From Thermoleophilia bacterium (GTDB taxonomy: Bacteria; Actinomycetota; Thermoleophilia; Gaiellales; SKUG01): a stretch of DNA of 64,000 nucleotides. A program made the translations under genes and the position numbers. Positions within the stretch are counted from its first letter, which is position 1; every line of letters starts with the position of its first letter. The stretch is from NCBI GenBank assembly GCA_025964435.1, contig JAOPYV010000167.1:1419-65418 (forward strand), written 5' to 3'. This document shows, piece after piece, positions 8,854-60,696 of this stretch. The notes beneath the pieces were generated by a model. The model was given only the letters and a program-made list of their open reading frames with translations. It ran no database searches and was not told the DNA's origin.

Positions 8854-9612
8854 TCAGTCGCGCGGGTCGCGTGCTCGGTAGCCCACGCCGCGGATCGTCT
8901 CGACGACCTCGGCGTGCGTGTCCAGCTTGCGGCGCACTGCCCTGACATGCACGTCGATCGTGCGGTCCGTCACCCAGGCGTTGTCACCCATGACGCGCAC
9001 GACCAGCTGCTCCCGCGAGAACACCCGGCCCGGCGAACGCAGGAGCGCATGCAGCAGCCGCAGCTCGGTGCGTGTCAGACGGACATCGACACCATCCACG
9101 AGCACCTCATGGCGCGCGGGGTCGACGATCACGCCGCCCAGCTCGACGCGACGCTGGTCAGGATCGGCGGTGTCCTCCGGCTCGCTCGCGGCACCGTTCT
9201 CCTCGGCGGGAACGGACCCTCGATTGCGACGGAGCACCGCCTGCACGCGCGCGACGAGCTCCTTCGGCGAGAACGGCTTGCTGACGTAGTCGTCCGCGCC
9301 GACGCCGAGACCCAGGACTATGTCACTCTCGTCCCCCTTGGCGGTCAGCATGATGACGGGAATCTCGCGCATGGCAGCATCCGCACGCATCGCGCGGCAG
9401 ACGTCGAGTCCATCCAGCTCCGGCAGCATCAGGTCCAGTACGACGAGCTGCGGTGCGGCGCTCCGGACGAGGTCCAGCCCTGCTCGCCCGTCGCGGGCGG
9501 TCGACACGTCGAACCCCTCGCGTTGGAGGTTCCATTCGATGACGTCGCGAATCGCTTCTTCGTCCTCGATGACCACGATCGATCGATCTGCGGTGGCGAC
9601 AGTGTCGTTCAT
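8854..9612 (-). CDS. OmpR/PhoB-family response regulator
   Basis: Receiver motifs (VVIEDEE, VVLDLMLPELDG, LTAKG). Winged-helix C-terminus (LTRTELRLLHALL, VDVHVRAVRRKL, IETIRGVGYR). Unusually long acidic linker. Confidence 0.92.
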   Translation of the reverse strand: MNDTVATADRSIVVIEDEEAIRDVIEWNLQREGFDVSTARDGRAGLDLVRSAAPQLVVLDLMLPELDGLDVCRAMRADAAMREIPVIMLTAKGDESDIVLGLGVGADDYVSKPFSPKELVARVQAVLRRNRGSVPAEENGAASEPEDTADPDQRRVELGGVIVDPARHEVLVDGVDVRLTRTELRLLHALLRSPGRVFSREQLVVRVMGDNAWVTDRTIDVHVRAVRRKLDTHAEVVETIRGVGYRARDPRD

Positions 9613-21694: not shown

Positions 21695-21764
21695 AGGACG
21701 TGGCCACGACCTGGGGCGTCGCTCACCTGCAGCACATCCAATGCACACATGCGACTCAGGAATT

Positions 21765-21774
21765 TTCGTACGAA
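21765..21774. promoter_or_regulatory. Perfect 10-bp palindrome TTCGTACGAA in the A/T-enriched leader of the giant gene
   Basis: Read directly from the sequence, ~40 nt upstream of ATG 21812. Confidence 0.3.
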
Positions 21775-21811
21775 CTCCGATGAAACTTCGGTGAGGATGA
21801 TCAGGGGAAGC

Positions 21812-30800: not shown

Positions 30801-33304
30801 CCGAGAGCTTCACCGGCTACGGCGTCATTCCGCCGCCGACGCTCGTCTCGCCGGCGAACAACGCGCGCATCAACACCGTTCCGCCGCTCGACTGGAACTG
30901 GCCGAGCGACGGCGGACCCGCCCCGACCGACTACGACCTCCTCGTCGACGGCATCGTGGTGACCAACGTCACCCACCCGACCTCCGTCTTCACGATCCTG
31001 GATCCGGGCGACGGCGTCCACACCTGGCAGGTCGTGCAGCACGATCCCTACACGGGTACCGTCAGCAGCGTCACGCGGACGTTCACCCTGGATCGCACGG
31101 CGCCGACCAACACCGGCCCGCTGACCCGCGTCGTCACCACCATCTCGTGGCCCGCCGTGAGCGACCCGGTCGTGCCCGTGGCCACCGGCATCGACCGCCA
31201 GGAGTTCTGGATCGACAACGGCGGCGGCCCGACCCTCGCCGCGACCCTCGGCGCCGCTGCGACGTCGTACGACTACGGCGTGCTGCCCGATGGCATCTAC
31301 ACGATGTTCGTGCGCGCCTTCGACAACGCTGGCAACTCGACCGACACCGCGCCGATCGTCATCACGAATGACTCGGTGCCGCCGACGGCGTTCACGCTCA
31401 CGGCGCCCGGCGCGCTGCCCGCGCTGCCGGCGATCACCGTCGGCCCGAACACGCCGCCCAGCTGCGAGACCACACCGACCTACCTGTCGGCGACGCCGAC
31501 CTTCGCCTGGTCCGCATCGAGCGACGCCACCAGTGGCCTCGCGGGCTACGACATCTACATCGACGGCGGGCTCGTCACCACGGTCGGCGCCGGCGTGACC
31601 AGCTACGTGGTCGCCACGCCGCTGTCGGCAGGCGCCCACACCTGGCACGTCGAAGCTCGCGACAACTTCGGCCTCTCCCGCAGCTCCACACCTGCCCCGA
31701 TGAACGTTCGGATCGATGCCGCATCGCCCACCGCGACGCAGGTCGCCCCGGCGAACGCATCCTTCACCGGCAACGCCACGCCGAGCCTGTCGTGGACCGC
31801 GGGTGACGACAACTGTGCAGCCCGGACCGAGCTGACCGTCGATGGCACGGTCATCGGAACCTTCGCGCCGACGACGAACTCCTGGTCGCCGACCGTTGCG
31901 CTCGCCGATGGCGCGCACACGTGGTCGATCCGCGTGTTCGACAGCGCCGGCAACATCACATCGAGCGGTGCGGCACGCACCTTCACCGTCGACACGACGC
32001 CGCCGTCCGCCATCACCGCCGTCTCGCCCGTCAACGCAGGCAGCATCAACGAGGGCATGCTGACCTTCGACTGGACCGACGGGACCGACACCGGTTCGGG
32101 CGTCAGTCGCTACGACATCGCCGTCGACGGCGTGCCCGTCCAGTCGAACCTGAGCGCCTCGACGCATGGCACGGTCGCCATCCACGCCGGCGTGCACACG
32201 TGGAGCATCCGCGCCTACGACGCCGTCGGGAACTTCGCCGACTTCACGTTCAGCTTCACGGCGCTGGCGGTTCCCGATGTCACGGCCCCGAACGCCTTCG
32301 ACCTGCTGACCCCGACCAATGGCGCCGCGATCACCGCCGGCACGGCGCTCTCATGGTCGCCTGCCTGGGACTTCTACGGAATCGCGAGCTACCGCATCTA
32401 CATCGACGGCCAGCTCTCCGGCACCGTGGCTGGCAACGTCACGAGCTTCACGCCGACCGTCGGCGTGGGCTCGCCGATCTGCTCCGTCGACTACGACCCG
32501 AGCGTCACGGCCGCCTGCATCACGGGCCAGACCTTCACCAACGGTGAGGTCGCCGGCGGACTGTCGACGCCGCCCGCCGTACCGTCCTCGAGCTGGAATG
32601 CCGCCGCCCAGGCCGGCTGGAGCGCCGCCGGCAACGCCTATGGCGTCGGCGATGCGGCCGTCACGCCCATCACCGCGGCAGCCGCTGGCTTCGATGGCGA
32701 CCGCATGTGGACCGCAATGGAGTACACCTCCAGCGTTCCCGCTGGTGGCGCCGACCTGCGCTTCGAACATCGCTACCGCTTCCACCGCCAGGGCGAGACG
32801 GTCCATGATGGCGGCACCGTCGAGCTGATGATCGATGACGCGGGCGACGGCTTCGGCAACGATACGTGGGAGACGACCTGCACCTACGGCGCACACGATA
32901 CGTACGGCGCTTCGGTGGCGTGTGACCACGAGGTCGTCGAGGCGGACGGCGGCTACGACGCAGTCTTCGCCGGGCCGGCAGCCAACCATCCGCTCGCGCA
33001 CCAGAACGGCTTCTCCGGCAGCCCCACCACGACGCAGCAGACCAAGATCCGGCTCTCGGAGTTCGCGGGCAAGGATATCCGCTTCCGCTTCCGCATCGGC
33101 ATGGATTCCTGCTACTCGGGCCAGGCGGCGTTCCGTGACGCGTACTGTCAGCCGCCGTTCGGCCGTGCCGTCTGGCGCATCGACAACGTGACGATGGCGA
33201 ACCCGTCGCTGCTGCCGGGCGCGCACACCTGGAACGTGCAGGCCGTCGACCCGTCGGGCAACGCGAGGACCTCGAACCAGACCTGGAACTTCAACCTGTC
33301 GTGA
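21812..33304 (+). CDS. Giant secreted multi-domain surface or adhesin-like protein (~3,830 aa)
   Basis: An uninterrupted 11.5-kb ORF with high GC3. Layout: signal peptide (MRHRRSTGRWVMGAIGAALMLLLISIPVLA), Lys/Pro/Ala-rich linker, PA14 domain, more than 25 Ig/FN3-like modules, and a C-terminal jelly-roll-like domain. Start is uncertain (21749-21845). Confidence 0.9.
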   Translation: MRHRRSTGRWVMGAIGAALMLLLISIPVLANGAGSKAKPASPAKATKPAACSTKSAAYRAAKPVKRGSKAKPVKPPRVCRTPLPPSAKFLPSFVPSTVAAELGKREKNGGQHGWAKLGASLGSTSSFTGPKGKVGVRLLGAPSATRTDFENGAAYVTKSYTAVQVFEGTSFKESIVVPKRLGARNWSWKLTLPKGRVPTVLANGGVDLGVGLFIPAPVITRADGTTIKTGSAWAVRADGTLTLRLNDKSFPTPYIIDPGVVPEVAFTGFSGVSANTYIDPAYALTRIYYNASQSGTFTANAAVHDPDTATPVDVCYPAYGAGWTSDGGCVPGSAGVPQGGILATYYSGSTSGSTYPGSAFTTNNNGANCANNSAGAVGPFSRIEQGINSYSNWGTAGVNDDAPYAELCADSFSGRWRGAIRTGATGGMHLFGAISDDGIRVTINGTRILSEWSEHTPAWHTSCPITLTANTTYPIEVEYFENNSSNRAQLRWWTLGSGNGPGGTANCLNPGDPIRTWIRTTAAGSTPWAPINETGVNATNGTAPTNWPIIPAGSTTTPGLHMPSNTFARTYSWTPTAAAPSPVTQNIVARDEDPDPDPGTTPFTAIADGVGPTGGTISISAPLNGGTYAATTGVTLNFNANGTTDGTPGLVSGMKPQNGEIHRQETTYANGACGAWPTTWTIGPGVTSAGSSIAPTANVSNDATRVGGLSNGKCYRWAVSFEDNVSNWGASTPTPALMIDTVAPPVAPVTFTEVTNPAWMHVSGSTLYYNGNTGNTGTFTVDVAASDPVSGVESVTYPGFATWPTGTAAAADAVAPYSRTYGWNDASSEPGTGLKTVVQDVATNVRDSNLFSVVRDVTAPAAATITYTNGMYGSSSHTVGFNRGNDGTGSGLATWHVERRSTPMVAGGVCDPYSTPWALDGVVDPTGTSYVSTGMVAGNCYQWQVVSTDNVGNVTTVASANELKYDDVAPAASFAGIVGVTGNAWRQPLTNTIWFNNSTAGGFRAQVVATDSLGVSGVNFPATGAAGWAGPTPTFDATGVANVFESAPYTWAAGAADPATITSVATDAAGNAANVTWDINLDTTAPAGGTLTLPSPIQQSLTIPITITVPTDAGSGIATWIVEMQSGTLSNGACSAYGGYTTVQSGTGTPPTSLNMVVAGSGCYLARLVTTDNVGNVNPAGAASPTPARVDQSAPTVAVTGPPDNSAQGGTFTISGTGSEPHSALTNVSVTYTGASTGTACASATLTPGAPGAWTWTCAWTTPPTDGIYTLTVTGTDSAGNASTATWHYLIDNVAPLASFTSWTETSAYLHAPGGADSDLLWYNPSAPAAGSGTVTATVTATDAGAGMDRVDFPGLGAAGWSGSGSDTTVAAGDLWSWNYAFTGGGAIGNPAPNNAVARDLAGATTGSPALDFRIEPDSTPPVGSTHSAFGGLQSATTLTSTLAVGTDAASGVARYAFELNFAPLEDGVCGAWDGWAPGGGSYASTANDGDVITFTHTINDPNGDGIPDWRDSFCMQARVNVFDNVGNVVQVPPNGIVRIDLADPTVAITTPASGTSQSGTFNVAGTADDDYVGTAPEYPLTGSGIDYVTVTYSGPATGTICATAPVTGPWTGHGWSCPWVTSALPDGLYTVTARSRDRSGRLSTISTSTYTLDNQAPIINFHSWLEGLGGGQMHAVGNVAWINPSAPAASYELDARVTATDAGSGVASVSFPAFGAGWTPSTAGNATLTSPLPVANAYTRPFTFSSGGSLATPGSLVATATDGAGNTATTPFEVRFDGAAPTGAATSVVSGLQNTASVAVTISPGVEGALESGLATWMLQYDMAPLANDTCGAFANSWGVVANGVGIAPAAINHDVTLLGSQCYRYRLRVVDNVGNGVDSAPSTNARRVDLVAPTVATLNPVSGSAHSGTFTVSGTATDAHSGIDHVRLTYLGGGGGTICDPATLAGTSPNWTFSCSWNTSALPDGPYTIRAVSFDRAGTPSAPVDIVVNLDNQPPFIGFYSFTETSPYTHWAGPVGTNQQIWFNPGAPAGSHSFDVNVTATDLGSGVDRVEFDGAGTGWTPGAVVASDASSAATPVADSYTATYTFDTTVPGLVDPPTLKATAFDPAGNPGVSTFEVVADTTAPTAGSIGYSNGFVPSTNVSVSIDTGGDGAGSGIKSWQLLRSDGTLSASSCIGWGAFTTSVATGTGAYVGSQSDTVTDPGCFRYELRVWDNVHNLVTWTSPNEIMVDLAPPTGTIVLAPATSPANQYLATPTRLYVNTSAGHSGTFTASVNASAASGVLDVNFPALAAGFSGDGTMPGPGPNFVRTYTWVAGASNPPAGTVATVQSNSLGSTGLPFDVVADPTAPSGGTTTYTSGFTAATTASISYTIGTDAGAGIAGHQLQREAGTLAAGVCTWSNTWTNAGAANGPLTYNDPVLAHASCYRYRVEVTDRVGNVGTTTPGLPIMVDTTAPTGATLVFVEDATDFASTHVPSGSTIYYRNGAGTVGSPENFWMEVRAIDAESGTGTVSFPVLAGNWSASAATPVAGGSRVSYGRWTTALEPGVVTAIVPNGSGLTTTITGNILADTSVSSAANWSIDYTHGFNTSTSIVVNWVDDLTDDRSGFATTTLHRRAYPFNVGTTLCDQSGFTDSSLGLVTGTTLTDASLVRPTCYRYWLAITDNVGNTAAIHPTTGGTTPPLFDTAWPTWDWKTTAAVDDIYPPAAFALTLPTNPVLPVITTAAAAPSCETVPTFGSSTPGFGWSASSDAQSGLDRYDVYVDGTGTVDAAVAAPGTSWTPPVLGDGAHTLGVRALDVQGNFTNAGPAFPANIRIDAAAPTATLSTPANGGWTSDTTPTLTWSAADANCLARVEVYVDNLVTPVAIASGSETSWTPTGALAEGLHSWRVEAVDAFGRRTSSPTSSFGVDTIAPAAFTLVAPTAGTTVRGFIDVTWTASSDGGSGLSGTSAYQVLIDGIVRTTVGSAITTANIAGITSGIHSVEVRAVDLVGNATLTATESFTGYGVIPPPTLVSPANNARINTVPPLDWNWPSDGGPAPTDYDLLVDGIVVTNVTHPTSVFTILDPGDGVHTWQVVQHDPYTGTVSSVTRTFTLDRTAPTNTGPLTRVVTTISWPAVSDPVVPVATGIDRQEFWIDNGGGPTLAATLGAAATSYDYGVLPDGIYTMFVRAFDNAGNSTDTAPIVITNDSVPPTAFTLTAPGALPALPAITVGPNTPPSCETTPTYLSATPTFAWSASSDATSGLAGYDIYIDGGLVTTVGAGVTSYVVATPLSAGAHTWHVEARDNFGLSRSSTPAPMNVRIDAASPTATQVAPANASFTGNATPSLSWTAGDDNCAARTELTVDGTVIGTFAPTTNSWSPTVALADGAHTWSIRVFDSAGNITSSGAARTFTVDTTPPSAITAVSPVNAGSINEGMLTFDWTDGTDTGSGVSRYDIAVDGVPVQSNLSASTHGTVAIHAGVHTWSIRAYDAVGNFADFTFSFTALAVPDVTAPNAFDLLTPTNGAAITAGTALSWSPAWDFYGIASYRIYIDGQLSGTVAGNVTSFTPTVGVGSPICSVDYDPSVTAACITGQTFTNGEVAGGLSTPPAVPSSSWNAAAQAGWSAAGNAYGVGDAAVTPITAAAAGFDGDRMWTAMEYTSSVPAGGADLRFEHRYRFHRQGETVHDGGTVELMIDDAGDGFGNDTWETTCTYGAHDTYGASVACDHEVVEADGGYDAVFAGPAANHPLAHQNGFSGSPTTTQQTKIRLSEFAGKDIRFRFRIGMDSCYSGQAAFRDAYCQPPFGRAVWRIDNVTMANPSLLPGAHTWNVQAVDPSGNARTSNQTWNFNLS
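22826..23294 (+). other. PA14 domain within the giant protein
   Basis: GILATYYSGS...FSGRWRGAIRTGATGGMHLFGAISDDGIRVTINGTRIL...TYPIEVEYFENNSSNRAQLRWW matches the PA14 pattern (YY, F..RW.G, DDG.rv.ing, Y.i.veY.e). Confidence 0.8.
24029..29900 (+). repeat. Divergent protein-level super-repeats inside the giant gene (A-B and A-B-C domain units)
   Basis: Units begin with D-x-x-A/P-P at nt 24029, 24707, 25685, 26771, 27788, 28502 and 29162. Three full A-B-C triads lie at 24707-25684, 25685-26770 and 26771-27787. A is xWxNPSAPA...VTATDxGSGVxxVxFP, B is SGxAxW...CGAW...DNVGNV, and C is APTVA...SGTFxxxGTAxD...WxCxWxTSALPDGxYT. Confidence 0.75.
29905..32270 (+). repeat. Two paralogous ~0.9-kb three-domain blocks in the giant gene (29905-30830 and 31370-32270)
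   Basis: The blocks are collinear at roughly 40-50% identity by eye. Examples: PSCETVPTFGSSTPGFGWSASSDAQSGLDRYDVYVDG vs PSCETTPTYLSATPTFAWSASSDATSGLAGYDIYIDG; IDAAAPTATLSTPANGGWTSDTTPTLTWSAADANC vs IDAASPTATQVAPANASFTGNATPSLSWTAGDDNC. Confidence 0.75.
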
Positions 33305-52120: not shown

Positions 52121-53038
52121 TCAGGCTGCAACGGCAGCAGGAGCGGCAGCGGGCAGCGCCGCGTCGAGCCCCGTCGTTCGCAGCGCCGCGATCATCGCGG
52201 CCGGCGCCGTGCCACCCATCGCGGCTGCAGCTCGCGTCAGTGCGCTCGCGAGCGTTGCCCACGTTCCGCCCTGGCGCCACGCCGTCGCATCGCGGATGAC
52301 TCGCCACAGCAGCGCCTCGGCCTGGTCTCGGCCCAGCGTGCGGCGCAGCAGGATGAAGGTCTCGGAGACGACGCCGCCTGCTGCGTGCACCTCGGCGCCC
52401 TTGGCGCTGGCTTCACGGTAGCGGCGGATCGTCGGTCCCAGCGGCATGCCGCTGATACGCGGCGAGCCGAGCTCGCGGATCGCGCCCTGGTGCCGTCCGT
52501 CTGGACCCAACGCGAAGAACTCTTCACCGAGCGTGTCGTCATTCGTGGCGAGCAGGGCAGCCGCATCGGCGATGCCCTCGAGGATCGCGCCGTTCGGCTT
52601 CGCGTTGGTCGCCATCCTGCCGAACTGGACGACGTGGACGAGCTCGTGGATCGCGGAGTCGACGGTGAGCAGGATCCCGGCGCGCCCACGGCTGCCTGCG
52701 TCCTTGGCAAGTGCATTCCTCGTACCGACCGCCAGCGAGCCGGTCGTGGCCCATGGGCCGTTCGCCGTCGCGTCGGAGTCGCGCAGGATGAGCTTCACGG
52801 CGGTGCCGGCGTCATCGATCCCGGCCAGCCCGACCCGCTCGCGCAGGAGCTGGACCGCGCGCACCAGCGCATCGATCGCCGCGCGCTCCGCCATCGTCAG
52901 GCGCACACTGGCGCGTGCCGCGCCGGCGGTGCCGAGATGGACGTCCGCTGCGCCGTTGCGGCCACGCAGCACGACCTGGATGCGTCGCGCATCGAGCGTC
53001 GAGCCGACGGGCAGTGCGGATGAGACGGGGGCAGTCAC
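52121..53038 (-). CDS. Compact thermolysin-like (M4-type) metallopeptidase with no signal peptide or propeptide
   Basis: HELVHVV (HExxH), GAILEGIADAAA (third-ligand Glu motif GxxNEaxSD), LGEEF, and VHAAGGVVSETF (thermolysin VHxNSGIxNkAf). Only ~135 aa precede the HExxH. Confidence 0.65.
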   Translation of the reverse strand: MTAPVSSALPVGSTLDARRIQVVLRGRNGAADVHLGTAGAARASVRLTMAERAAIDALVRAVQLLRERVGLAGIDDAGTAVKLILRDSDATANGPWATTGSLAVGTRNALAKDAGSRGRAGILLTVDSAIHELVHVVQFGRMATNAKPNGAILEGIADAAALLATNDDTLGEEFFALGPDGRHQGAIRELGSPRISGMPLGPTIRRYREASAKGAEVHAAGGVVSETFILLRRTLGRDQAEALLWRVIRDATAWRQGGTWATLASALTRAAAAMGGTAPAAMIAALRTTGLDAALPAAAPAAVAA

Positions 53039-53147: not shown

Positions 53148-53825
53148 ATGTCGTCCGACCTTGCCATCTCTGCCACCGGCCTCAGCCGAACGTTCCGCGT
53201 CCCTGTGCGCGAGGCGGGCCTGCGCGCGTCGCTTCGCTCCGTGGTGCGCCGCACGTATCGCGACGTCCACGCGGTCCGAGGCATCGACCTCGCGATCGCA
53301 CCGGGCGAGATCGTCGGCTTCCTCGGTCCGAACGGCGCCGGCAAGACGACGACCCTCAAGATGCTCAGCGGATTGATGCATCCCACGAGCGGCACGGCCC
53401 GCGTCCTGGGCGTCGACCCGGCTCGCCGCTCACGCGACTTCCTGACCAGCATCTCCTTCGTCATGGGCCAGCGCCAGCAGCTGACGAGCGAGCTGCCAGC
53501 AGCCGACTCGCTCGAGGTGCTGCGAGCGACGTATCGGATCTCGCGGCCGGCGTTCCGTGAGCAGCTCGACGAGTTGACCGAGCTCCTTGACCTCGCCCCC
53601 TTGCTCGACAAGCCGGTCCGCCAGCTCTCGCTCGGCGAGCGCATGAAGTGCGAGCTGGCCGCCGCGCTGATCCATCGGCCGACCATGCTCTTCCTCGATG
53701 AGCCGACCCTCGGACTCGACGTCCAGGCCCAGCGGCGCGTGCGCGAGTTCGTCGCCAGCTACGCGAAGCGCAGCGGTGCGACGGTGCTGCTGCAGGTCAG
53801 ACCCCCCAGCCGTGGCGCCTGCTGA
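53148..53825 (+). pseudogene. ABC transporter ATPase truncated before the H-loop (COG4586-like)
   Basis: Walker [10 protein letters not shown], signature LSLGERMK and Walker B MLFLDEPTLGLD are intact. After SGATVLL (nt ~53794) the frame reads QVRPPSRGAC-stop instead of the expected TSH... H-loop and C-terminal ~90 aa. Confidence 0.7.
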
Positions 53826-54262
53826 ACCTCGCCGCCGGGCTGACGCTCATTGCGATCGGGGTGTCCAACCAAGGCTTCGACGAGGTCTCGGGCGGGGCTG
53901 TCGGTGCACTGCTCGCCGCCGTCACGATGCTCGCCTGCTCGATCTGCATCGTCACCGGCTTCTGGGCGCTGATGGCCAGCATCACCTTCTGGACGATCGA
54001 GGGCGAGGGCATCCTCTGGGCCCTCGATGACATGTACGACCACCTGCGTTGGCCGCTCCAGATCTTCCCACCGGGCCTGCGGATGGCGCTCTCGACGGTC
54101 TACCCCGCCGGGTTCGCCATCACGGTGCCCGCATCAGCGCTGACCGGCCGCCTCGGACTGTCGACGGCGCTCATCGCGTGCGCCACGGCAGCAGCGTTCC
54201 TCATCGCGGCACGACTGGTGTGGCGGGTTGCGATCCGTCGCTACGAGGGCGCGAACAGCTGA
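53810..54262 (+). pseudogene. C-terminal fragment of an ABC-2-type permease (partner of the truncated ATPase)
   Basis: The frame of track ORF 53861..54262 is already permease-like from ~53810 (PWRLLNLAAGLTLIAIG...FWTIEGEGILW...YPAGFAITVPASALTG...RRYEGANS). No N-terminal TM helices and no plausible start context. Confidence 0.6.
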
Positions 54263-54266
54263 CGAG

Positions 54267-55415
54267 TCAGGCAGCAGCTGAGCGGTCACTGCAGCGCGGG
54301 CACTCGACGTGGCAGCCGGGCTCCATCCACTCGCTCTCCATCGTGCGGATGTCGAGCTCGAACTCGCGGCCGAGCATGGAGGACTGATGGATGCCGGCGA
54401 GCAGGCCGATCGCCTGGCCAGCGCACATCGATGCCGCAGTGACGTCGGCCCAGCCGACAGCCGGAAGCGCGGGTGGCTCCTCGTTGCGGCGGATGCCGAC
54501 CTCCGCCTCGAGCTCCTCGGAGCCGGGTGCGATACGACTCGCGTAGAAGCATGCGTAGCAGCTCGTCACGCCGGGAACGAGCAGCGGCCCCGCGTAGGCA
54601 AAGGGTGGGCGGGAGCCGCCGTGAAGCACCGGGACGCCGAGCGCGAAGGCACCCGCGTCGACCCACTCCTTGATCGCCAGTGGCGGGCGGTCGGCGGCAC
54701 AGACCACGAGGTCCGGCTGGACACGCCGCACGAGCTTGGCGACGTCCTCCGCGCAGGTGATCTCCTGGTCGATCGCGGTGAAGTTCGAATCCGGCGCGAT
54801 CTGCTCGAGATGCATCGCTGCAGCGAACACCTTGCGGACACCGATGTCACGATCGGTGTACAGCAGCTGGCGCGGCAGGTTCTGCTCCTCGACGCGATCG
54901 AAGTCGGTCAGCGCGATGCTGCCGACACCCGCACGCGCGAGCAGCTCGGCGAAGGGCGCGCCAAAGCCTCCGACGCCGAGCATGAGCACGGTCGACATGG
55001 CGAGGCGACGCTGGGCAGCGGGACCGTCGACGCCCTCCTGTGCAAACCAACGGACCTGGCGATCGAAGCGCTCGACGTCGACCGCTGCGACCTGGTCGGC
55101 CGGCAGCAGCACGCGACGGACCGCGAGGTAGCGGATCGTCTCGTCGAAGGTGGGGCGATCGAGCGGCGTGACGCACTGCTCGACCGGGACCCCCCGCACG
55201 ACAACGTCATGCACCATGCGCCCCCAGGGGCTGTCGACCTGCAGCTGCTCACGCCCGCGTACCGGGATCAGCAGGAGCGTCCCGTCGTCGAGCAACACGG
55301 ATTCCGTGGAAGGGCAGGTGACATAGCTGGGACCAGCGCCGGGAACCTCCGTGGGGAAGGCGGCGCGGCGAGGCAGGGACATGTCCGTGTGTCGTGCGGT
55401 GGGCGTATCCGGCAT
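54267..55415 (-). CDS. ThiF/E1-superfamily adenylyltransferase with an N-terminal ~130-aa extension (MccB/PaaA-like architecture)
   Basis: Nucleotide-binding signature LMLGVGGFGAPFAELLARAGVGSIALTDFDRVEEQNLPRQ. VVCAADRPP. Two CxxC pairs (CYAC and CPRC) ~80 aa apart, as in the MccB Zn site. 382 aa. Confidence 0.85.
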   Translation of the reverse strand: MPDTPTARHTDMSLPRRAAFPTEVPGAGPSYVTCPSTESVLLDDGTLLLIPVRGREQLQVDSPWGRMVHDVVVRGVPVEQCVTPLDRPTFDETIRYLAVRRVLLPADQVAAVDVERFDRQVRWFAQEGVDGPAAQRRLAMSTVLMLGVGGFGAPFAELLARAGVGSIALTDFDRVEEQNLPRQLLYTDRDIGVRKVFAAAMHLEQIAPDSNFTAIDQEITCAEDVAKLVRRVQPDLVVCAADRPPLAIKEWVDAGAFALGVPVLHGGSRPPFAYAGPLLVPGVTSCYACFYASRIAPGSEELEAEVGIRRNEEPPALPAVGWADVTAASMCAGQAIGLLAGIHQSSMLGREFELDIRTMESEWMEPGCHVECPRCSDRSAAA

Positions 55416-55418
55416 GAC

Positions 55419-55496
55419 TTAGGCCTTGCTGATCGGCTGGACGGGTGTACGGACCGGACCAACCGGAATTCCTGATCGCGCTGCGCCTCGCACCAT
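55419..55496 (-). CDS. Candidate small peptide gene (25 aa MVRGAARSGIPVGPVRTPVQPISKA; an in-frame upstream ATG at 55571 would give 50 aa)
   Basis: Not in the supplied track (below the size cutoff). GGGGG lies 5 nt upstream of ATG 55496. The TAA stop is 3 nt before the E1 ATG. GC3 is only moderate, so the coding status is unproven. Confidence 0.3.
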   Translation of the reverse strand: MVRGAARSGIPVGPVRTPVQPISKA

Positions 55497-55593
55497 GCTT
55501 GCCCCCTGCTCACTCGAGTGCCCGCATTGGAGATAGGACGGCGGGCACGCCCACAGCCTCGGAGAGGCCATGTTGAGGGGGTCGGCGCAGCGC

Positions 55594-55630
55594 CTGTCAG
55601 TAACCTGTCACCGCGTGATCGACAGTGATC
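55594..55630 (-). promoter_or_regulatory. Four helically phased hexamers (GATCAC, GATCAC, TGACAG, TGACAG; spacing 10/10/11 nt) upstream of the small ORF-E1 operon
   Basis: The minus strand reads cctGATCACtgtcGATCACgcggTGACAGgttacTGACAGgcg. It overlaps the stop codon of the SARP gene. Confidence 0.5.
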
Positions 55631-57773
55631 AGGTGCCGGGTTCGACGAGCTCGGCGTGCCGGCGCACGAGGGCCAGCGAGGGCGTCAGACCAACGGCGCT
55701 CTGCAGCGCTTCACGGTAGCGATGGAAGGCTGTGGAGCCGTCGGCGAGCCGACCAGCTCGGACGTGCAGCTCGATCTCGCAGGCAGCGACCTGCTCGTCG
55801 AGCGGGTCGAGCCGGACCAGCGCCGCTGCCAGCGTGAGCAGCACCTGGGGGACGTCGACGTGCGCCTCGCTGGACGGGGCTGCCGCCGCGATCCATGCGC
55901 GAAGGACCGCCAACGACGTCTCGACGATCTCGTCGCGCAGGCGACGCTGCCACGTCACGATGATCTCGTCGCCACCGAGGCCTGCCAGGGGAATGCCATC
56001 GGCGAGCGGCACCAGTCGCGTGGCACACGCGACGCTGCCCGCTGCATTGCGAGGATCAAGGGCTGCGACATCTGCCGCGATCCTGCGCAGGTCGCCCACG
56101 TCCGAGCTGTCGCCCTCCGCGAGCACCAGCTCGACCATCAGGTCGCGCGCAGCAACGCTGCGCAGCTCCGTCCCGTCGCCAGCATCGGCACCCAGCACCG
56201 TACGCACGACGCTCAGCACGGTCGAGAGCCGCGCCGAGGCCTGGGCCTGGGTCATGTCGATGCCGTACCAGAGACCTTCGACGAGCACGCCGCGCTCGAT
56301 GCGCCCGCCGCTGGCGACGAGGACGGCCAACACCACGCGCGCCTTGCGCCGCTTGCTCCACAGCGCAGGATCGACGGGCTCGCCGTCGACCAGCACGCGC
56401 AGTCCGCCCAGCACCTCGATACGCACCGACGGAACACGCACCGGCGCCGCGCCTCGCGTGGTCTCGTCCAGGATCTGCCACGGATCCGCGTCCTGGGCAC
56501 CCAGCTCGAACCCCTGCTCCAGGAGCTCGGCACGCGAACGTTCGAGCACGGCCGCCTCACCGAGCACGTGCCCCACGAGCAGCCCACCAAGCGCGGCATA
56601 GACCGGCAGCGCCGCGCGATGTTCCATCGTCAGGGTCGCCAGCTCCGCCGCGAGCTCCCGAGCCCGCGGGACGTTCCCGGCCAGCTGCATGCCCAACACG
56701 GCGAAGTAGATCCAGATCAGTCGCTGCTCCGCATCGGGGGTTCGCTCCCCGAGCAACACTCGCCCGCGCCGGATCGCCGCTTCGACGGCAGGCGTGTCGG
56801 CAGCGATCGCCTCGACGAGCATCAGTGCTGGAAGCGTTGCGCTCAGCTCCAGCGACGACGTGTCGGATTCGGCGCGGGTGGCCAGGGCGAGCTCGGCTCG
56901 GGCGGCGTCGACGCTGCCCAGCACGGCGTGGGCGAGTCCTTCCACGCCATGGAGCCATGCCTCGTACTCGGCCGAGACGACGAGCTGGCCGCGCGTGCGT
57001 GCGATCACGTCGAGTGCAGCCTGTGGTCGGCCGATCAGGATCTGGAAGAAGGCGAGCTCGAGCGTCACGTCGATGAGCAGCAGGCGGCCCACGGAACCGC
57101 GCATCGCTGCGATGCCCGCATGGACCCGCTCCAGCACGAACACCGCTCGACCGGGCTGTCCACCCGACAGCATGAGGTAGCTCCGGGCCCACTGGAACTC
57201 GACGAGCCATCGGGTCTGCGCGGACGTGACGACATCCGGATGTTCAAGCGCGCGCGCCCAGAGCAGGCCCGCCTCAGCCAGCTCGCCGGCTCGCTCTGCC
57301 ATCGTCGCGAAGGTGGCCAGCAGCCTGGGTGGCGCAGGCACATCCGCGTGCCGCTGCAGGATGATGCGCGCCGCATGCCAACCCTTCGCGGCCTCGGACT
57401 CATGCAGCACCCAGGCATTCCACAGTGCGGCGGACTGGTCCGCCCACAGCAGGTTGCCGCGGTGCATGCACGCATCGAGGGCCTCGAGGAAGTTCGCACC
57501 GAGATCCGGTGCCAGCCCGTCGTGCTGCACCTGTCGCGCCACGGCGTGCAGGCAGAGTCGGATCGGGTGCGCGCCGGCCTCGATCATCGGCCGCGGCGTA
57601 TCCGCCAACAGTCGCGCCAAGGGTGGGTCCGTGGCCTGCGCGAGCAGCTCGGTCGCGATGTCCTCGTCCAGCTCGAATGCCGCGATCGCTGCATCGTCGC
57701 CGGTGAGGACGGCCGCGAACGGACCATCCAGTGGCGGGACTGACACGACATCGGTGGCGGGGTTCGGGGTCAT
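55629..57773 (-). CDS. SARP-type regulator with inverted domain order (N-terminal helical/TPR-like region; C-terminal OmpR-type wHTH plus BTAD)
   Basis: The C-terminal ~260 aa read IEVLGGLRVLVDGEPVDPALWSKRRKARVVLAVLVASGG...LSTVLSVVRTVLG (wHTH), then ...LDPLDEQVAACEIELHVRAGRLADGSTAFHRYREALQSAVGLTPS (BTAD). The N-terminal ~450 aa are Leu/Ala-rich helical repeats. No P-loop was seen. Confidence 0.8.
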   Translation of the reverse strand: MTPNPATDVVSVPPLDGPFAAVLTGDDAAIAAFELDEDIATELLAQATDPPLARLLADTPRPMIEAGAHPIRLCLHAVARQVQHDGLAPDLGANFLEALDACMHRGNLLWADQSAALWNAWVLHESEAAKGWHAARIILQRHADVPAPPRLLATFATMAERAGELAEAGLLWARALEHPDVVTSAQTRWLVEFQWARSYLMLSGGQPGRAVFVLERVHAGIAAMRGSVGRLLLIDVTLELAFFQILIGRPQAALDVIARTRGQLVVSAEYEAWLHGVEGLAHAVLGSVDAARAELALATRAESDTSSLELSATLPALMLVEAIAADTPAVEAAIRRGRVLLGERTPDAEQRLIWIYFAVLGMQLAGNVPRARELAAELATLTMEHRAALPVYAALGGLLVGHVLGEAAVLERSRAELLEQGFELGAQDADPWQILDETTRGAAPVRVPSVRIEVLGGLRVLVDGEPVDPALWSKRRKARVVLAVLVASGGRIERGVLVEGLWYGIDMTQAQASARLSTVLSVVRTVLGADAGDGTELRSVAARDLMVELVLAEGDSSDVGDLRRIAADVAALDPRNAAGSVACATRLVPLADGIPLAGLGGDEIIVTWQRRLRDEIVETSLAVLRAWIAAAAPSSEAHVDVPQVLLTLAAALVRLDPLDEQVAACEIELHVRAGRLADGSTAFHRYREALQSAVGLTPSLALVRRHAELVEPGT

Positions 57774-57873
57774 GGAGATACCTGCACGTCGGCGAGACTG
57801 CTACATAAGGGTACGATATGGAGTCCCGTCGGGCGGCGTGGCGCAGCCGATGGCCCCCTCCGGCCCGCGCCGC

Positions 57874-57900
57874 TGACAGACACTGACAGGTTAGTGACAG
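57874..57900 (+). promoter_or_regulatory. Three phased TGACAG direct repeats (spacing 10 and 11 nt) in the divergent region upstream of 57923
   Basis: cgcTGACAGacacTGACAGgttagTGACAGcac. The core TGACAGGTTA(C/G)TGACAG is shared with the site at 55594-55610. Confidence 0.5.
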
Positions 57901-57922
57901 CACGCTCGCCCACGCTGGGTCC

Positions 57923-58195
57923 ATGAGTGATCGCGAGCGACATACCTTCGTGGCCCCCGCCAGCGACGACGGCGAGCACACGGGCATGTCGGCCGAGGAG
58001 TGGCAGACCTGCTCCAAGATCTTCACCGAGGGCCGGCGCATGCGCACGCTCGCTGCGGAGCTTCGCGGACTCGAGGGCCCGCGACTCAACCCCACGGCAC
58101 GCATCGCGCTCGACGAGTACATCCGTGGGATGGAGCGCGCTGGCGCGCTGGGCGACATCGCCGCCGAGGCCCTGGTCGCACGGGGCAGCCGCTGA
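57923..58195 (+). CDS. Hypothetical 90-aa helical protein
   Basis: High GC3. No recognisable motif. First gene of a plus-strand run downstream of the TGACAG repeats. Confidence 0.65.
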   Translation: MSDRERHTFVAPASDDGEHTGMSAEEWQTCSKIFTEGRRMRTLAAELRGLEGPRLNPTARIALDEYIRGMERAGALGDIAAEALVARGSR

Positions 58196-58234
58196 CGCAC
58201 GCATGGGAGCGCGGCACACGGGGAACGCTCCAGT

Positions 58235-58729
58235 GTGGCCGCAGCTCCCGACAACGACGACTTCTTCCAGCAGCCCGCAGATGCGGGCACCGTCGACGCG
58301 ACCCACTCCGAGGTCGCCACCGCGCCGCCGCGGCTCGGCGTGCTGGCGGAGCTGTCGGTCGAGGAGTTCGATTCCGTGGCCCGCTCGGCGCAGCTGACCT
58401 TCGTCGTGCCCGGCGGCACGATCTGCAGCCAGGGCGACCAGGCCGACCGCTTCTTCATCGTCGTCGACGGGACGGTCGAGGTCGAGCGCGATGGCGAGCT
58501 GCTGGCCACGCTGGCCGATGGCGCCTTCTTCGGGGAGAGCGCGTTGCTCGTCGGCGGGCGCCGCTCGGCGACGGTCCGGGCCCTCACGCCCTGCTCGATC
58601 TGGTCGATCGACTACGCCGCCTTCGACGCGGCGGTCGCCCACCACCTGCTCGCCGACGACGAGCACGGGCCCGAGGCCGCACGCCGTATCGATGCGACGC
58701 CGCCGACCGCCTTCGACGAACCCACCTAG
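58235..58729 (+). CDS. Stand-alone cyclic-nucleotide-binding (cNMP/Crp effector) domain protein
   Basis: FFIVVDGTVEVERDGELLATLADGAFFGESALLVGGRRSATVRA matches the cNMP phosphate-binding cassette (FGE..ll....R.ATv.A). No DNA-binding or other output domain. GTG start. Confidence 0.8.
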   Translation: MAAAPDNDDFFQQPADAGTVDATHSEVATAPPRLGVLAELSVEEFDSVARSAQLTFVVPGGTICSQGDQADRFFIVVDGTVEVERDGELLATLADGAFFGESALLVGGRRSATVRALTPCSIWSIDYAAFDAAVAHHLLADDEHGPEAARRIDATPPTAFDEPT

Positions 58730-58777
58730 GCCGCTGGCCGCTTTCGGCCGAAGTGCCTGCGTGCTGCAACAGCCGGG

Positions 58778-59383
58778 GTGCGTGGCCCGATGCAGCAGGC
58801 GATGAGCAGAATCCCCCGCCGCCACCGTCCATCCGCCCTGGATGGCTATAGCCGCCTCGCCCGCACCGGCACTGTCGTGGCCAGCTCGAGCGAACCGTCG
58901 ACACCCGACCTGCGCGATTCGGTCGCCCAGCGTCGCCGTCGCCGTGGTGGCTGGCGCTTTGCCGGCGGCCTGCGCTTCCTCGGGCTCGCAGCCGTCCTGG
59001 TGCTGATCGTCGGCGCCTCTGTCGGCCTGGCCAGCGCCGATCCGCGCGGCGCGCGCACGTCGACCGCAGCGGCAACGCACGAGAAGACGACGCCCGTCGT
59101 TCGCGACGCGGTCGATGCGATCGATTCGATCGAGACACGGGCGGCGGCCGAGAAGCCGAAGGACCCGACGGCGACCGAGCGGGTCGCATCGACGACCGTC
59201 GCTTCTGCCGTGCCCGAGGCTGATGCCATCGTCGCACCAGCCAACGCGCAGCTGCCGGTCACCGGCGACCGGACGATCGAGATGTTCGTCCTCGCAGGAG
59301 CGACGCTGGTCCTGATGGGCATGGCGCTGCAGATCGCCGGGCAGCCGCTGCCCGCACGCGCACGAGCGCGCCGCTCTGCCTGA
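58778..59383 (+). CDS. LPXTG-anchored surface protein (hypothetical)
   Basis: The C-terminus has LPVTGD, a hydrophobic stretch (MFVLAGATLVLMGMAL) and a basic tail (RARARRSA). The N-terminus has RRRRR plus a TM/signal. The start is uncertain. Confidence 0.7.
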   Translation: MRGPMQQAMSRIPRRHRPSALDGYSRLARTGTVVASSSEPSTPDLRDSVAQRRRRRGGWRFAGGLRFLGLAAVLVLIVGASVGLASADPRGARTSTAAATHEKTTPVVRDAVDAIDSIETRAAAEKPKDPTATERVASTTVASAVPEADAIVAPANAQLPVTGDRTIEMFVLAGATLVLMGMALQIAGQPLPARARARRSA

Positions 59384-59460
59384 GCCAGCTGCCCTGAACC
59401 GGATGCGCGCGCCTGCTCGATAGTCCGGTGGACGCGCGAACGGGACGAAGGGCGGACACG

Positions 59461-59766
59461 ATGCAGGCAGGATCACTCGCGAGCTGGGGCCAGCGCGCCG
59501 CCTTCCTCGGTGGCGCAACCGTCGTCGGCGGCCTCGCGCTGCCGGTCTCCGCGGCATTCCTCGACGGCCCGTCGACGGAGCACCTGATCAAGCCCGTGCA
59601 GTTCGGCGCGACCACGGCCATCGGCATCGGCGTCGGCGCTGCTGTCACCGGCATCGGCCTCGGCGGCGCTCACGCGCGAGCCAGCGCAATGGCGATCGGT
59701 GGAGCACTCGGCCTCGCCGGCGCCGCGATCGCCAACCAGGTCTGGGAGAACGTGCTGCTCGGCTAG
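59461..59766 (+). CDS. Small Gly-zipper membrane protein (hypothetical)
   Basis: GAAGGG lies 8 nt upstream of ATG 59461. Three Gly/Ala-rich hydrophobic segments. Its stop shares the CTAG tetranucleotide with the convergent HNH gene stop. Confidence 0.5.
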   Translation: MQAGSLASWGQRAAFLGGATVVGGLALPVSAAFLDGPSTEHLIKPVQFGATTAIGIGVGAAVTGIGLGGAHARASAMAIGGALGLAGAAIANQVWENVLLG

Positions 59767-60164
59767 CGAGCAGGCTCGATCAGCTCGCGCACGCGCTTGG
59801 CCTCGCGCGTCACGTAGTCGCGGATCTTGCGCATGCCGCCATCACGGGCGATCGCGTCGTTGAGGCGGTCGAGCTGGTCAGCGACGAGCTCGGCGTTGGG
59901 GTCCAGGCCTCGGTCGCGACGACTCGACTCGATGTACTGCGACGGCGAATCGTTCCCGCGCTTGCCGTTGCACGAGCCGCACGATGCGACCTCGTTCTCC
60001 AGCCGCGTCGGCCCACCCTTGACCTTCGGCACGATGTGGTCGCGCGTCGGCCGGGCGTTCGGCTTGCTCAGGTCGAAGCCGCACCAGGCGCAGTTGCCGT
60101 CGCCCAGCTCCAGGAGGTGCTCCAGTCGCGCGGCTGGTGACATCTGTCGTGGATCGATTCCCAT
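59763..60164 (-). CDS. HNH endonuclease (133 aa)
   Basis: CAWCG...RPTRDHIVPKVKGGPTRLENEVASCGSCNGKRGN (a CxxC...DH...N...CxxC HNH zinc-finger core). Start at MGIDPRQ. Confidence 0.85.
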   Translation of the reverse strand: MGIDPRQMSPAARLEHLLELGDGNCAWCGFDLSKPNARPTRDHIVPKVKGGPTRLENEVASCGSCNGKRGNDSPSQYIESSRRDRGLDPNAELVADQLDRLNDAIARDGGMRKIRDYVTREAKRVRELIEPAR

Positions 60165-60174
60165 GCGTGTGGTC

Positions 60175-60696
60175 CTACTCGTCTTCGTCGTCGGCTTCGA
60201 TGCGTTCGTCGCCGAACGCGTGGCGGTCGTGGCGACCTTGGTCGTCACCCGCCTCATCATCGCCTACTCCGCGGATCGCCGCGAGCGGGTCGGTCGCGGG
60301 GATGTCCTCGCGCGCCGGTGCCGGCGTCGTCCGCTCGATCGGCGAGGCCTGGCCCGAGCCGGCGACCGCGGCCGCGCCACCAAGCTGCTGCGCCCGATTG
60401 GTCGGGTCGGCCGATCGCGCGCGCTCGATCGCCGCAGCGATCGCGTTGCCGTGCGCCGCAGCGTCGTGCACCGTGGCGCGCATCTGCATGCCGGGCGGCC
60501 CCTGCACGGGATGCTCCAGCTGCGCGTGGACCGCGGCAGCGCCGACGCGTTCGCCGATGTCGACGATCGGCGGGCGCCCGGTCAGCGGTGGGGCGGGCGA
60601 CGCCTGCGGCACGGGTCGTGGAGGCACGACGGGTTCGACCGGGTCACTTCCGATAGCGCCGACTGGTGGGATGGGATCGTCTGGTGCCATGCCCAT
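60175..60696 (-). CDS. Pro-rich, acidic-tailed hypothetical protein
   Basis: Good GC3. It ends 10 nt upstream of the HNH start. There is no recognisable domain. Confidence 0.4.
   Translation of the reverse strand: MGMAPDDPIPPVGAIGSDPVEPVVPPRPVPQASPAPPLTGRPPIVDIGERVGAAAVHAQLEHPVQGPPGMQMRATVHDAAAHGNAIAAAIERARSADPTNRAQQLGGAAAVAGSGQASPIERTTPAPAREDIPATDPLAAIRGVGDDEAGDDQGRHDRHAFGDERIEADDEDE

Follow-up and report, generated by a model that had tools for sequence, protein, structure and literature searches.

Phased direct repeats on both sides of a solenoid-SARP regulator gene in a Gaiellales genome: a probable activator-dependent promoter for a predicted leaderless operon

Which protein reads a phased set of TGACAG repeats that ends only 22 nt before a start codon, and does it also read a near-identical set on the far side of a single regulator gene? 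The question is raised by 64,000 nt of contig JAOPYV010000167.1 (assembly GCA_025964435.1) from a Thermoleophilia bacterium of the Gaiellales, the whole of which is referred to here as the window. In it, a gene for a 714-aa regulator, annotated as a hypothetical protein of a Thermoleophilia metagenome-assembled genome, lies on the minus strand between two repeat sites. Beyond the right-hand site runs a plus-strand set of four genes led by that of a 90-aa protein (p90), and beyond the left-hand site lie the genes of a short peptide and of a ThiF-like (E1-like) adenylating enzyme. We propose that the repeats are the operator of the adjacent regulator, which would be a fusion of a TPR-like solenoid with a SARP module. 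Judged from sequence comparison and predicted structure, the whole chain, in which a SARP-type activator-dependent promoter drives a leaderless accessory operon co-regulated with the peptide and ThiF genes, is likely; that the element is functional and tied to the regulator is likelier still. The features on which the argument turns are as follows.

57874-57879, plus strand: distal (third) TGACAG copy, 10 nt from the middle copy
57883-57904, plus strand: 22-bp box of two 11-bp direct-repeat units, CTGACAGGTTA and GTGACAGCACG; -40 to -19 if +1 is 57923
57911-57916, plus strand: -10-like hexamer CACGCT, 10 nt past the last TGACAG; -12 to -7 if +1 is 57923
55629-57773, minus strand: regulator, 714 aa, with a predicted TPR-like helical solenoid (residues 18-419), a linker and a C-terminal SARP module (winged helix 450-550, BTAD 558-710)
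55590-55611, minus strand: left 22-bp box, units GTGACAGGTTA and CTGACAGGCGC, 18 nt past the regulator stop; -40 to -19 if +1 is 55571
55578-55583, minus strand: left -10-like hexamer GACCCC (weak match), 10 nt past the last TGACAG
55494-55571, minus strand: predicted 5' leader of the peptide mRNA, about 75 nt, with hairpins at 55571-55553 (from the first base) and 55548-55518
55419-55496, minus strand: 25-aa peptide MVRGAARSGIPVGPVRTPVQPISKA, from ATG 55496 with an upstream GGGGG ribosome-binding site
54267-55415, minus strand: ThiF-like adenylating enzyme, 382 aa (PF00899, 138 bits), with a 115-aa N-terminal extension

A phased repeat that follows the regulator gene

A sequence-only reading of the window had reported three phased TGACAG hexamers upstream of p90, ending 22 nt before ATG 57923, and no other phased cluster in the 64 kb. 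Motif search bears out all of this. The hexamers occupy 57874-57879, 57884-57889 and 57895-57900 on the plus strand (start-to-start distances of 10 and 11 nt), and two more lie on the minus strand at 55594-55599 and 55605-55610. Motif counts and shuffles cover the 64-kb window (70% G+C). TGACAG as such is not enriched (16 copies, against 26.8 ± 5.5 in shuffles), while phased TGACAG-N4/5-TGACAG pairs occur three times against 0.01 expected, a number that none of 100 shuffles reached. All three matches fall at the two sites (plus strand 57874-57900, minus strand 55594-55610); the remaining 11 copies are isolated, and a search allowing one mismatch added a single pair, at 51350 inside a gene and with 12-nt spacing. 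The 18-nt cores CTGACAGGTTAGTGACAG (57883-57900, plus strand) and GTGACAGGTTACTGACAG (55611-55594, minus strand) agree at 16 of 18 positions. Their near-identity had been noted before, with an interval for the left core, 55594-55612, that proved one base too long. Both clusters are intergenic and are kept in independent assemblies from other samples. With such counts, such positions and such conservation, chance matches or a by-product of coding sequence or assembly are an extremely improbable explanation. The phased motif is real and non-random; its position is conserved and its sequence varies by lineage.

This variation is seen in related loci, which we designate by L numbers. Regulator, peptide and ThiF genes are syntenic in L003, L004-L006 (a more distant genome, with a regulator 43% identical), L007, L008, L009/L010, L011/L012, L013, L016 and L017, and the arrangement persists to a ThiF identity as low as 46%. 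Wherever a relative covers the position, the left box lies directly past the regulator stop and carries lineage-specific hexamers; in L004 and L018 the TGA stop itself falls inside the first hexamer. The two left-box hexamers read as follows.

Window, L002, L004 and L008: TGACAG in both copies
L016: TGACAG and TGGCAT
L017: TGACAT in both copies
L018: TGAAAG in both copies
L007: CGCAAG and TGAAAG
L003: TGAGAC and TGGAAC
L009 and L013: TGCAAG in both copies
L011: TGCAAC in both copies

In all 15 aligned sites a pair of TG..A. hexamers with an 11-nt period is followed, after 10 nt, by a (C/G)A... hexamer. When about 190 kb were scanned with a general pattern that required identical hexamers, only the expected sites matched (expectation, 0.015 per 64 kb); as the pattern was built from the matched sites themselves, this speaks for specificity only. 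Between lineages, both hexamer copies change in concert (TGACAG, TGACAT, TGAAAG, TGCAAG, TGCAAC). This is unlike the behavior of a sigma-factor -35 element and is expected of a site that co-evolves with its own regulator. It bears on the view that the hexamers are ordinary -35-like elements (TTGACA or nTGACC), duplicated or there by chance, with no dedicated regulator. TGACAG does resemble TTGACA and the Streptomyces -35 motif NTGACC (PMC4895711), and L004 reads TTGACAG. Yet both copies shift together to TGCAAG, TGCAAC or TGAAAG elsewhere, they stand 11 or 22 nt from the -10-like hexamer, and in 15 sites neither the strict 11-nt phase nor the 10-nt offset changes, which makes ordinary -35 elements very unlikely.

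The box always adjoins the regulator gene. Among the related loci that extend far enough upstream of ThiF, this is the one gene encoding a DNA-binding domain that all of them share. Some other protein that binds direct repeats, for example an OmpR/PhoB-type response regulator, might nevertheless be the reader, the SARP-like gene being close by coincidence. Direct repeats with a period of 10-11 bp are likewise targets of OmpR-family response regulators, and the window holds a gene for an OmpR-type response regulator at 8854-9612. At afsS, PhoP overlaps the AfsR site (PMC10972967). Against another binder stand the position of the box, directly past and sometimes overlapping the stop of the SARP-like gene in every relative, its variation with the lineage of that same gene, and the lack of any other constant DNA-binding gene nearby; we hold it to be quite unlikely.

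Two products of the right-hand operon were considered as readers and rejected, as neither p90 nor the cyclic-nucleotide-binding protein has a DNA-binding domain and both are missing from lineages that keep the box. The p90 gene is absent from five such lineages and the cyclic-nucleotide-binding gene from most of them, so neither can read the repeats. The cyclic-nucleotide-binding protein shares with CRP/FNR factors the nucleotide-binding domain and, by eye, an FGE...RSA-type cassette. It differs in being 164 aa long without a helix-turn-helix, and the repeats are direct, unlike the TGTGA-N6-TCACA palindrome. It is therefore not a CRP-type factor.

A SARP-type regulator with an inverted domain order

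Several kinds of evidence place the regulator among the SARPs. BTAD (PF03704) is its sole Pfam detection, at 24-27 bits on residues 592-709 (cut-off 22.1). A profile of its C-terminal module and 22 relatives (A1) matched AfsR (8hvr_I, E = 8e-26, residues 38-285) and EmbR (2fez, E = 6e-25, residues 6-256) in PDB, in alignments that take in the whole SARP module, DNA-binding part included. Among the 23 module members, Trans_reg_C matches 13 and BTAD 22. An AF2 model built from 10 sequences (pLDDT 86) has a helical solenoid at 18-419, a disordered linker, a winged helix (strands 450-462, helices 476-527, wing 539-550) and BTAD helices at 558-710. The top Foldseek matches are AfsR SARP chains in complexes of RNA polymerase with promoters (TM 0.70), with EmbR next; for the N-terminal part, the matches are TPR-type solenoids. 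An NB-ARC domain was not found by Pfam or in the model. On the strength of the BTAD score, the profile matches to AfsR and EmbR, the modeled fold and Foldseek, the regulator is assigned to the SARP type, with a C-terminal module.

The small, medium, large and SARP-LAL classes all carry the SARP module at the N-terminus (PMC10972967). The regulator departs from this order, having the solenoid first and the SARP module last. Many metagenomic proteins of 750-1100 aa (P0142, P0173, P0181, P0204, P0209 and others) have a SARP-like module at the C-terminus, and the inverted solenoid-SARP order may be widespread outside Streptomyces though absent from reviews.

Full-length relatives are few. A word-indexed homologue search with the regulator returned the query itself only; exhaustive search returned about 15 full-length relatives (clusters) and hundreds of proteins that match residues 445-710 alone. 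Nothing was found in a first scan of genome contigs with the regulator, an alignment-based scan (A2) added only L013 and a duplicate of L009, and a metagenome scan with the regulator alignment yielded only one truncated locus, L015.

A GATAT(C) core is common to the regulator-proximal half of the divergent intergenic region in the window (57813-57818, minus strand), L003, L009 and L011. On the regulator strand, about 40 nt upstream of ATG 57773, it gives TATCGT in the window and TATCAT in L009 and L011, which makes it a good candidate for the -10 (TANNNT) of the promoter that serves the regulator itself. As the SARP box lies about 60-100 bp upstream of that candidate, autoregulation is possible.

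Promoter geometry and predicted start sites

SARPs activate transcription by binding direct repeats that overlap the -35 region and are spaced by one turn of the helix (PMC10936776, PMC10972967). The spacing is 11 or 22 bp, and about 8 bp separate the 3' repeat from the -10 element; in the afs box, two 11-bp units cover -40 to -19, overlap a poor -35 and precede a weak -10, CACTGT (PMC10936776). Sites with three repeats and with 10-bp units are known (PMC10972967). The geometry matches this target-site rule in the 15 sites, at positions that depend on the predicted start.

The likeness to described SARP boxes (AfsR with the afs box at afsS; ActII-ORF4, DnrI, PimR) is close. The module is the same predicted combination of OmpR-type winged helix and BTAD; the direct repeats have the same 11-bp period, the one 10-bp interval of the window recalling the secondary site of PimR; the box would replace the -35 at the same -40 to -19, before a weak -10 (CACGCT here, CACTGT at afsS); and the regulator likewise adjoins a small biosynthetic cluster. 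In contrast to those systems, the module is C-terminal, behind a TPR-like solenoid of about 400 residues and without NB-ARC, the host belongs to the Thermoleophilia/Gaiellales and not to Streptomyces, the repeat core is TG..A. and not of TCGAG type, and one target would be a leaderless operon of small non-enzymatic proteins.

The p90-side site is kept in two other lineages. L001, a 1.1-kb contig on which p90 is 82% identical, begins with gtgCTGACAGGTTAGTGACAGcgaactggccCACGCTggggccATG; the hexamers, CACGCT and the 22-nt distance to ATG are kept, whereas the bases before the box differ, as do 5 of the first 8 spacer bases. In L004-L006, the p90 homologue (45% identity) is preceded by CTGACAGGTCACTGACAGgtcgatggggCAAGCTggtcacATG, again with the hexamers, the offset and 22 nt to ATG. 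The -10-like hexamer is CACGCT in L001 and CAAGCT in L004, and the 10-nt spacer diverges. The distal TGACAG copy is absent in L004, and the L001 contig begins after that position. In the window and in L004, the bases after the first hexamer match between the two sites, being GTT in the former and GTC in the latter.

The nearness of the box to ATG 57923 had earlier been taken to mean that the mRNA is leaderless, that the start is mis-set or that the site represses. Between an in-frame TGA at 57884 and ATG 57923 there is no earlier possible start, and the ATG is not preceded by a Shine-Dalgarno sequence. About 21% of Streptomyces coelicolor mRNAs are leaderless, with a preference for AUG (PMC4895711). 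Because L001 and L004 keep the 22-nt distance and CA(C/A)GCT but not the spacer sequence, the first of the three options is favored and the other two are not; a box that ends 22 nt before ATG has the look expected of a SARP-dependent leaderless promoter. The p90 operon is most likely transcribed as a leaderless mRNA from this predicted start. The orientation had also been read as predicting activation of the plus-strand run 57923-59766, and the direction and position of the repeats fit such activation by a SARP.

At the left site the hexamers found at the -10 offset in relatives are GAACTC, GACGAC, GATGAC, GACACT, GATGCT, GATCAT, GATGAT, GACAGT and GAGATA. The minimum-energy fold of the first 24 leader nucleotides pairs base 1, the predicted +1, in 11 of 11 lineages. 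This first hairpin has 6-8 bp (7-8 in 9 of 11) and single-sequence z-scores of -0.9 to -3.9, and its sequences are unrelated between lineages. The second hairpin (CCCGC...GCGGG, inverted repeat I4) has compensatory changes in three of six pairs. The hairpins may form a stabilizing 5' stem-loop or a regulatory leader. In L018 (1797-1841) there is no peptide gene between regulator and ThiF, the box (TGAAAG twice) overlaps the regulator stop, and no peptide of this family was found on the 3.4-kb contig. The ThiF ATG of L018 stands exactly 22 nt past the last hexamer, which implies a leaderless ThiF gene. This distance and the 11 of 11 leader hairpins are independent pointers to the same predicted start position.

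An ATG at 55571 of the window, at the same 22-nt distance, was considered as the start of a second leaderless gene and rejected, since L004 lacks it, in L002 it is not in frame with the peptide, and it lies buried within the 5' hairpin. For the same reasons of frame (L002) and missing ATG (L004), the 50-aa open reading frame from that codon is not the peptide gene. The peptide paired with the E1-like enzyme in the earlier interpretation does adjoin ThiF, but it is 25 and not 50 aa long, as its conserved C-terminus indicates: PxQPx(S/G/T)K(A/T/G) before the stop, on a peptide of 24-26 aa in every related locus covering the interval except L018.

We propose that two protomers of the C-terminal SARP module would bind head-to-tail at 57883-57904, replacing the -35 element, and recruit RNA polymerase to the weak CACGCT at 57911-57916, which would act as the -10. 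Transcription would begin at or next to the A of ATG 57923 and give a leaderless polycistronic mRNA of four genes. The box 18 nt past the regulator stop would drive the peptide and ThiF genes through the 75-nt leader, so that both units would be switched on together, and the N-terminal solenoid is presumed to gate the SARP module on a signal. From the comparisons above we infer that the regulator binds, that it activates and does not repress, where transcription starts, that the four genes are co-transcribed and that the solenoid answers a signal.

Several results speak against this proposal. Pfam Trans_reg_C has no match on the window regulator itself, and phmmer against PDB sequences, with the whole regulator or its C-terminus, found none either, so that its winged helix is assigned through the family profile and the predicted fold. 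A consensus sigma-70 promoter and terminator scan of 54000-60400 gave no site, and the -10-like hexamers are poor: an initial T is missing from all of them, and a final T from the left one, GACCCC. The p90-side box is known from three lineages only, one of them a close relative. Co-variation between recognition-helix residues and hexamers was looked for and none was evident; the helix differs even where the hexamer is the same. In L007 the cyclic-nucleotide-binding gene is divergent from the regulator, and the intergenic gap of 30-80 nt holds no box. Finally, one medium SARP is reported to act negatively by an unexplained mechanism (PMC10972967). This last point, and the overlap of the box with core promoter positions, would suit a regulator that binds the same repeats but represses a promoter that RNA polymerase can use unaided. 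However, the promoter scan found no usable -35/-10 pair without an activator, xTGACA sits 11 or 22 nt and not 16-19 nt from the -10-like hexamer, characterized SARPs of this geometry activate, and the BTAD activation domain is retained. Repression is accordingly unlikely, and we prefer activation by the regulator. An Rfam search of 55300-60000 gave no credible match.

A conserved core and a variable accessory set

The right-hand genes have coding-type composition (G+C at third codon positions, GC3, of 0.81-0.93; at second positions, GC2, of 0.50-0.61) and are, in order:

57923-58195, plus strand: p90, 90 aa, GC3 0.86; homologues in L001 (82%) and L004 (45%)
58235-58729, plus strand: stand-alone cyclic-nucleotide-binding protein, 164 aa (PF00027, 76 bits, residues 58-136)
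58790-59383, plus strand: LPXTG-type membrane or surface protein; alternative starts 58778 and 58802
59428-59766, plus strand: small Gly/Ala-rich membrane protein, 112 aa from GTG, likelier start ATG 59461; GC3 0.85

The genes divergent from the regulator differ between loci:

Window: p90, cyclic-nucleotide-binding, LPXTG-type and small membrane proteins
L001: at least three of the window's four
L004: p90 and LPXTG-type, no cyclic-nucleotide-binding protein
L003: LPXTG-type and small membrane proteins, no p90 and no cyclic-nucleotide-binding protein
L007: cyclic-nucleotide-binding protein only, no box
L009, L011 and L013: unrelated genes

The p90-side box is present only where p90 leads the operon; it was not found in L003, L007, L009, L011 or L013 with the hexamers of the respective lineage or with the general pattern. 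The conserved core is thus formed by regulator, peptide and ThiF, and, by sequence comparison, the right-hand genes appear as a mosaic, a lineage-variable accessory set. Accordingly, the conservation of the gene neighborhood holds for the core and fails for the right-hand genes. The claim of one regulon joining both flanks gains from the same motif at both sites in L004-L006, but the four-gene unit it named on the right is not a fixed one.

The p90 protein is almost without relatives. Its AF2 model has a disordered N-terminus and then a two-helix hairpin (pLDDT 80), and no Pfam, NCBIfam or significant fold match was found. One called homologue exists among 5.8 billion proteins, that on L001; the homologue in L004-L006 is uncalled, and a metagenome scan with the p90 alignment found nothing.

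The FGESAL...RRSA stretch of the cyclic-nucleotide-binding protein we take, by eye, to be a phosphate-binding cassette. Pfam gives no helix-turn-helix family match on its 164 aa, and the NCBIfam CRP and FtrB models score far below their cut-offs. Orthologues are found in L001 and, divergent from the regulator, in L007, where the gene at 1377-1901 is about 70% identical by eye, N- and C-terminal tails included. Rather than being its target, the protein may have a functional link with the regulator. No nucleotide cyclase was found in the scanned parts of the window.

The LPXTG-type protein has an N-terminal motif, one transmembrane segment or signal, a low-complexity stretch, LPVTG, a hydrophobic segment and a RARARR tail. 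It resembles sortase-anchored proteins in the last three of these, which are conserved in three lineages; the homologues in L001, L003 and L004 retain LP(V/F)TG and the tail. It differs from them in a full-length score below cut-off and in two unusually conserved parts, an N-terminal cytoplasmic motif and the C-terminal segment. TIGR01167 (cut-off 15.9) gives 16.7 and 18.0 bits on isolated C-termini and 12.5 on the full window protein; Pfam Gram_pos_anchor (cut-off 20) gives 13.7 on the isolated C-terminus and 8 on the full length. The N-terminal motif PSA(L/M/I)DG(Y/F)xRLxRT (window 58790-58870, L003, L004) precedes the first hydrophobic segment, and the C-terminal hydrophobic segment reads GMxxQIAGxPLPAR. 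Such conservation is odd for parts that secretion and sorting would remove. No sortase was seen, in that GC3-filtered open reading frames of the window hold no TLxTC and about 30 Pfam-scanned proteins no Sortase domain, several genes being unscanned.

The small membrane protein has no Pfam or NCBIfam match; a 98-aa homologue follows the LPXTG-type gene in L003, with LPVSAA(F/L)LD in common. An HNH endonuclease gene (59763-60260, minus strand) is convergent with the operon, sharing 4 nt with its last gene. The HNH, GATase, GreA, trypsin-fn3 and other neighbors are syntenic with L003 and L004, which indicates a chromosomal locus and no obvious island. Elsewhere in the window, 21749-33304 (plus strand) is a single open reading frame of 3851 aa with coding-type composition (GC3 0.89).

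On the left, the ThiF adenylation domain adjoins a short candidate precursor peptide, as in minimal ThiF-like clusters for peptides that are made on ribosomes and modified after translation (IndF/IndA; MccB, PaaA, GrcB; PMC12596934). Common to both are the short precursor, a ThiF enzyme with an N-terminal extension, a peptidase and a transporter; here, an M4-like peptidase lies at 52121-53038 and an ABC exporter, convergent with ThiF, at 53148-54262 (plus strand). In contrast to those clusters, the peptide ends PxQPxSKA and not in an Asn, Cys or Trp motif, so the chemistry is not assignable from known examples. The 115-aa extension of the window enzyme has no Pfam match, RRE included, at E up to 10, and the transporter is truncated. 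Of the exporter, ATPase residues 9-219 (53160-53792) and, in another frame, second-permease residues 110-266 (53789-54259) remain; about 1.55 kb, with the first permease, is missing. L003, L004 and L008 have an intact exporter and the 93%-identical L002 a longer one, and the break is either a real deletion or an assembly collapse.

A peptide gene that follows its regulator and shares the regulator's box also recalls peptide quorum sensing. In RRNPP cassettes (Rgg/SHP, ComR/ComS, PlcR/PapR) an N-terminal XRE-type helix-turn-helix is joined to a C-terminal TPR receptor for an exported peptide. The likeness is one of layout only: a TPR-type domain fused to a DNA-binding domain, the peptide gene past the regulator with the regulator's box, and an exporter and a peptidase nearby. 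Here, by contrast, the DNA-binding part is the C-terminal SARP module in place of an N-terminal XRE-type helix-turn-helix, the peptide lacks a signal sequence and has a ThiF-like enzyme as its partner, and sensing is only conjectural. A literature search found no paper that links RRNPP and SARP. As a speculation that we consider rather improbable, the peptide might be modified by ThiF, exported, trimmed and sensed by the TPR solenoid of the regulator, upon which the SARP module would activate both units. Equally speculative is the corresponding division of roles, with positive feedback on peptide and ThiF and the p90, cyclic-nucleotide-binding and LPXTG-type genes as output operon. Such a circuit would possibly take in a cyclic-nucleotide signal through the stand-alone binding protein. 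If true, it would amount to RRNPP-like logic built from unrelated parts, of a kind undescribed in the Actinomycetota.

The combination of genes had earlier not been recognized as a described system. The regulatory device, a SARP box, is of a known kind, whereas its presumed targets are uncharacterized. What is new is the inverted TPR-SARP architecture, the repeat sequence, the phylum-level setting and those targets. For an uncultured, deep-branching actinobacterial lineage, the proposal provides a concrete and testable regulon of one activator, two boxes and two start sites predicted to the base. It would extend the SARP paradigm beyond the antibiotic clusters of Streptomyces and add a form that combines inverted architecture and a TG..A. 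repeat with a leaderless target and a small peptide cluster of ThiF type. A natural series for the study of SARP-DNA specificity would be provided by the lineage-specific boxes (TGACAG, TGCAAG, TGCAAC, TGAAAG, TGACAT), and regulator and box together could serve to turn on the peptide cluster in a heterologous host.

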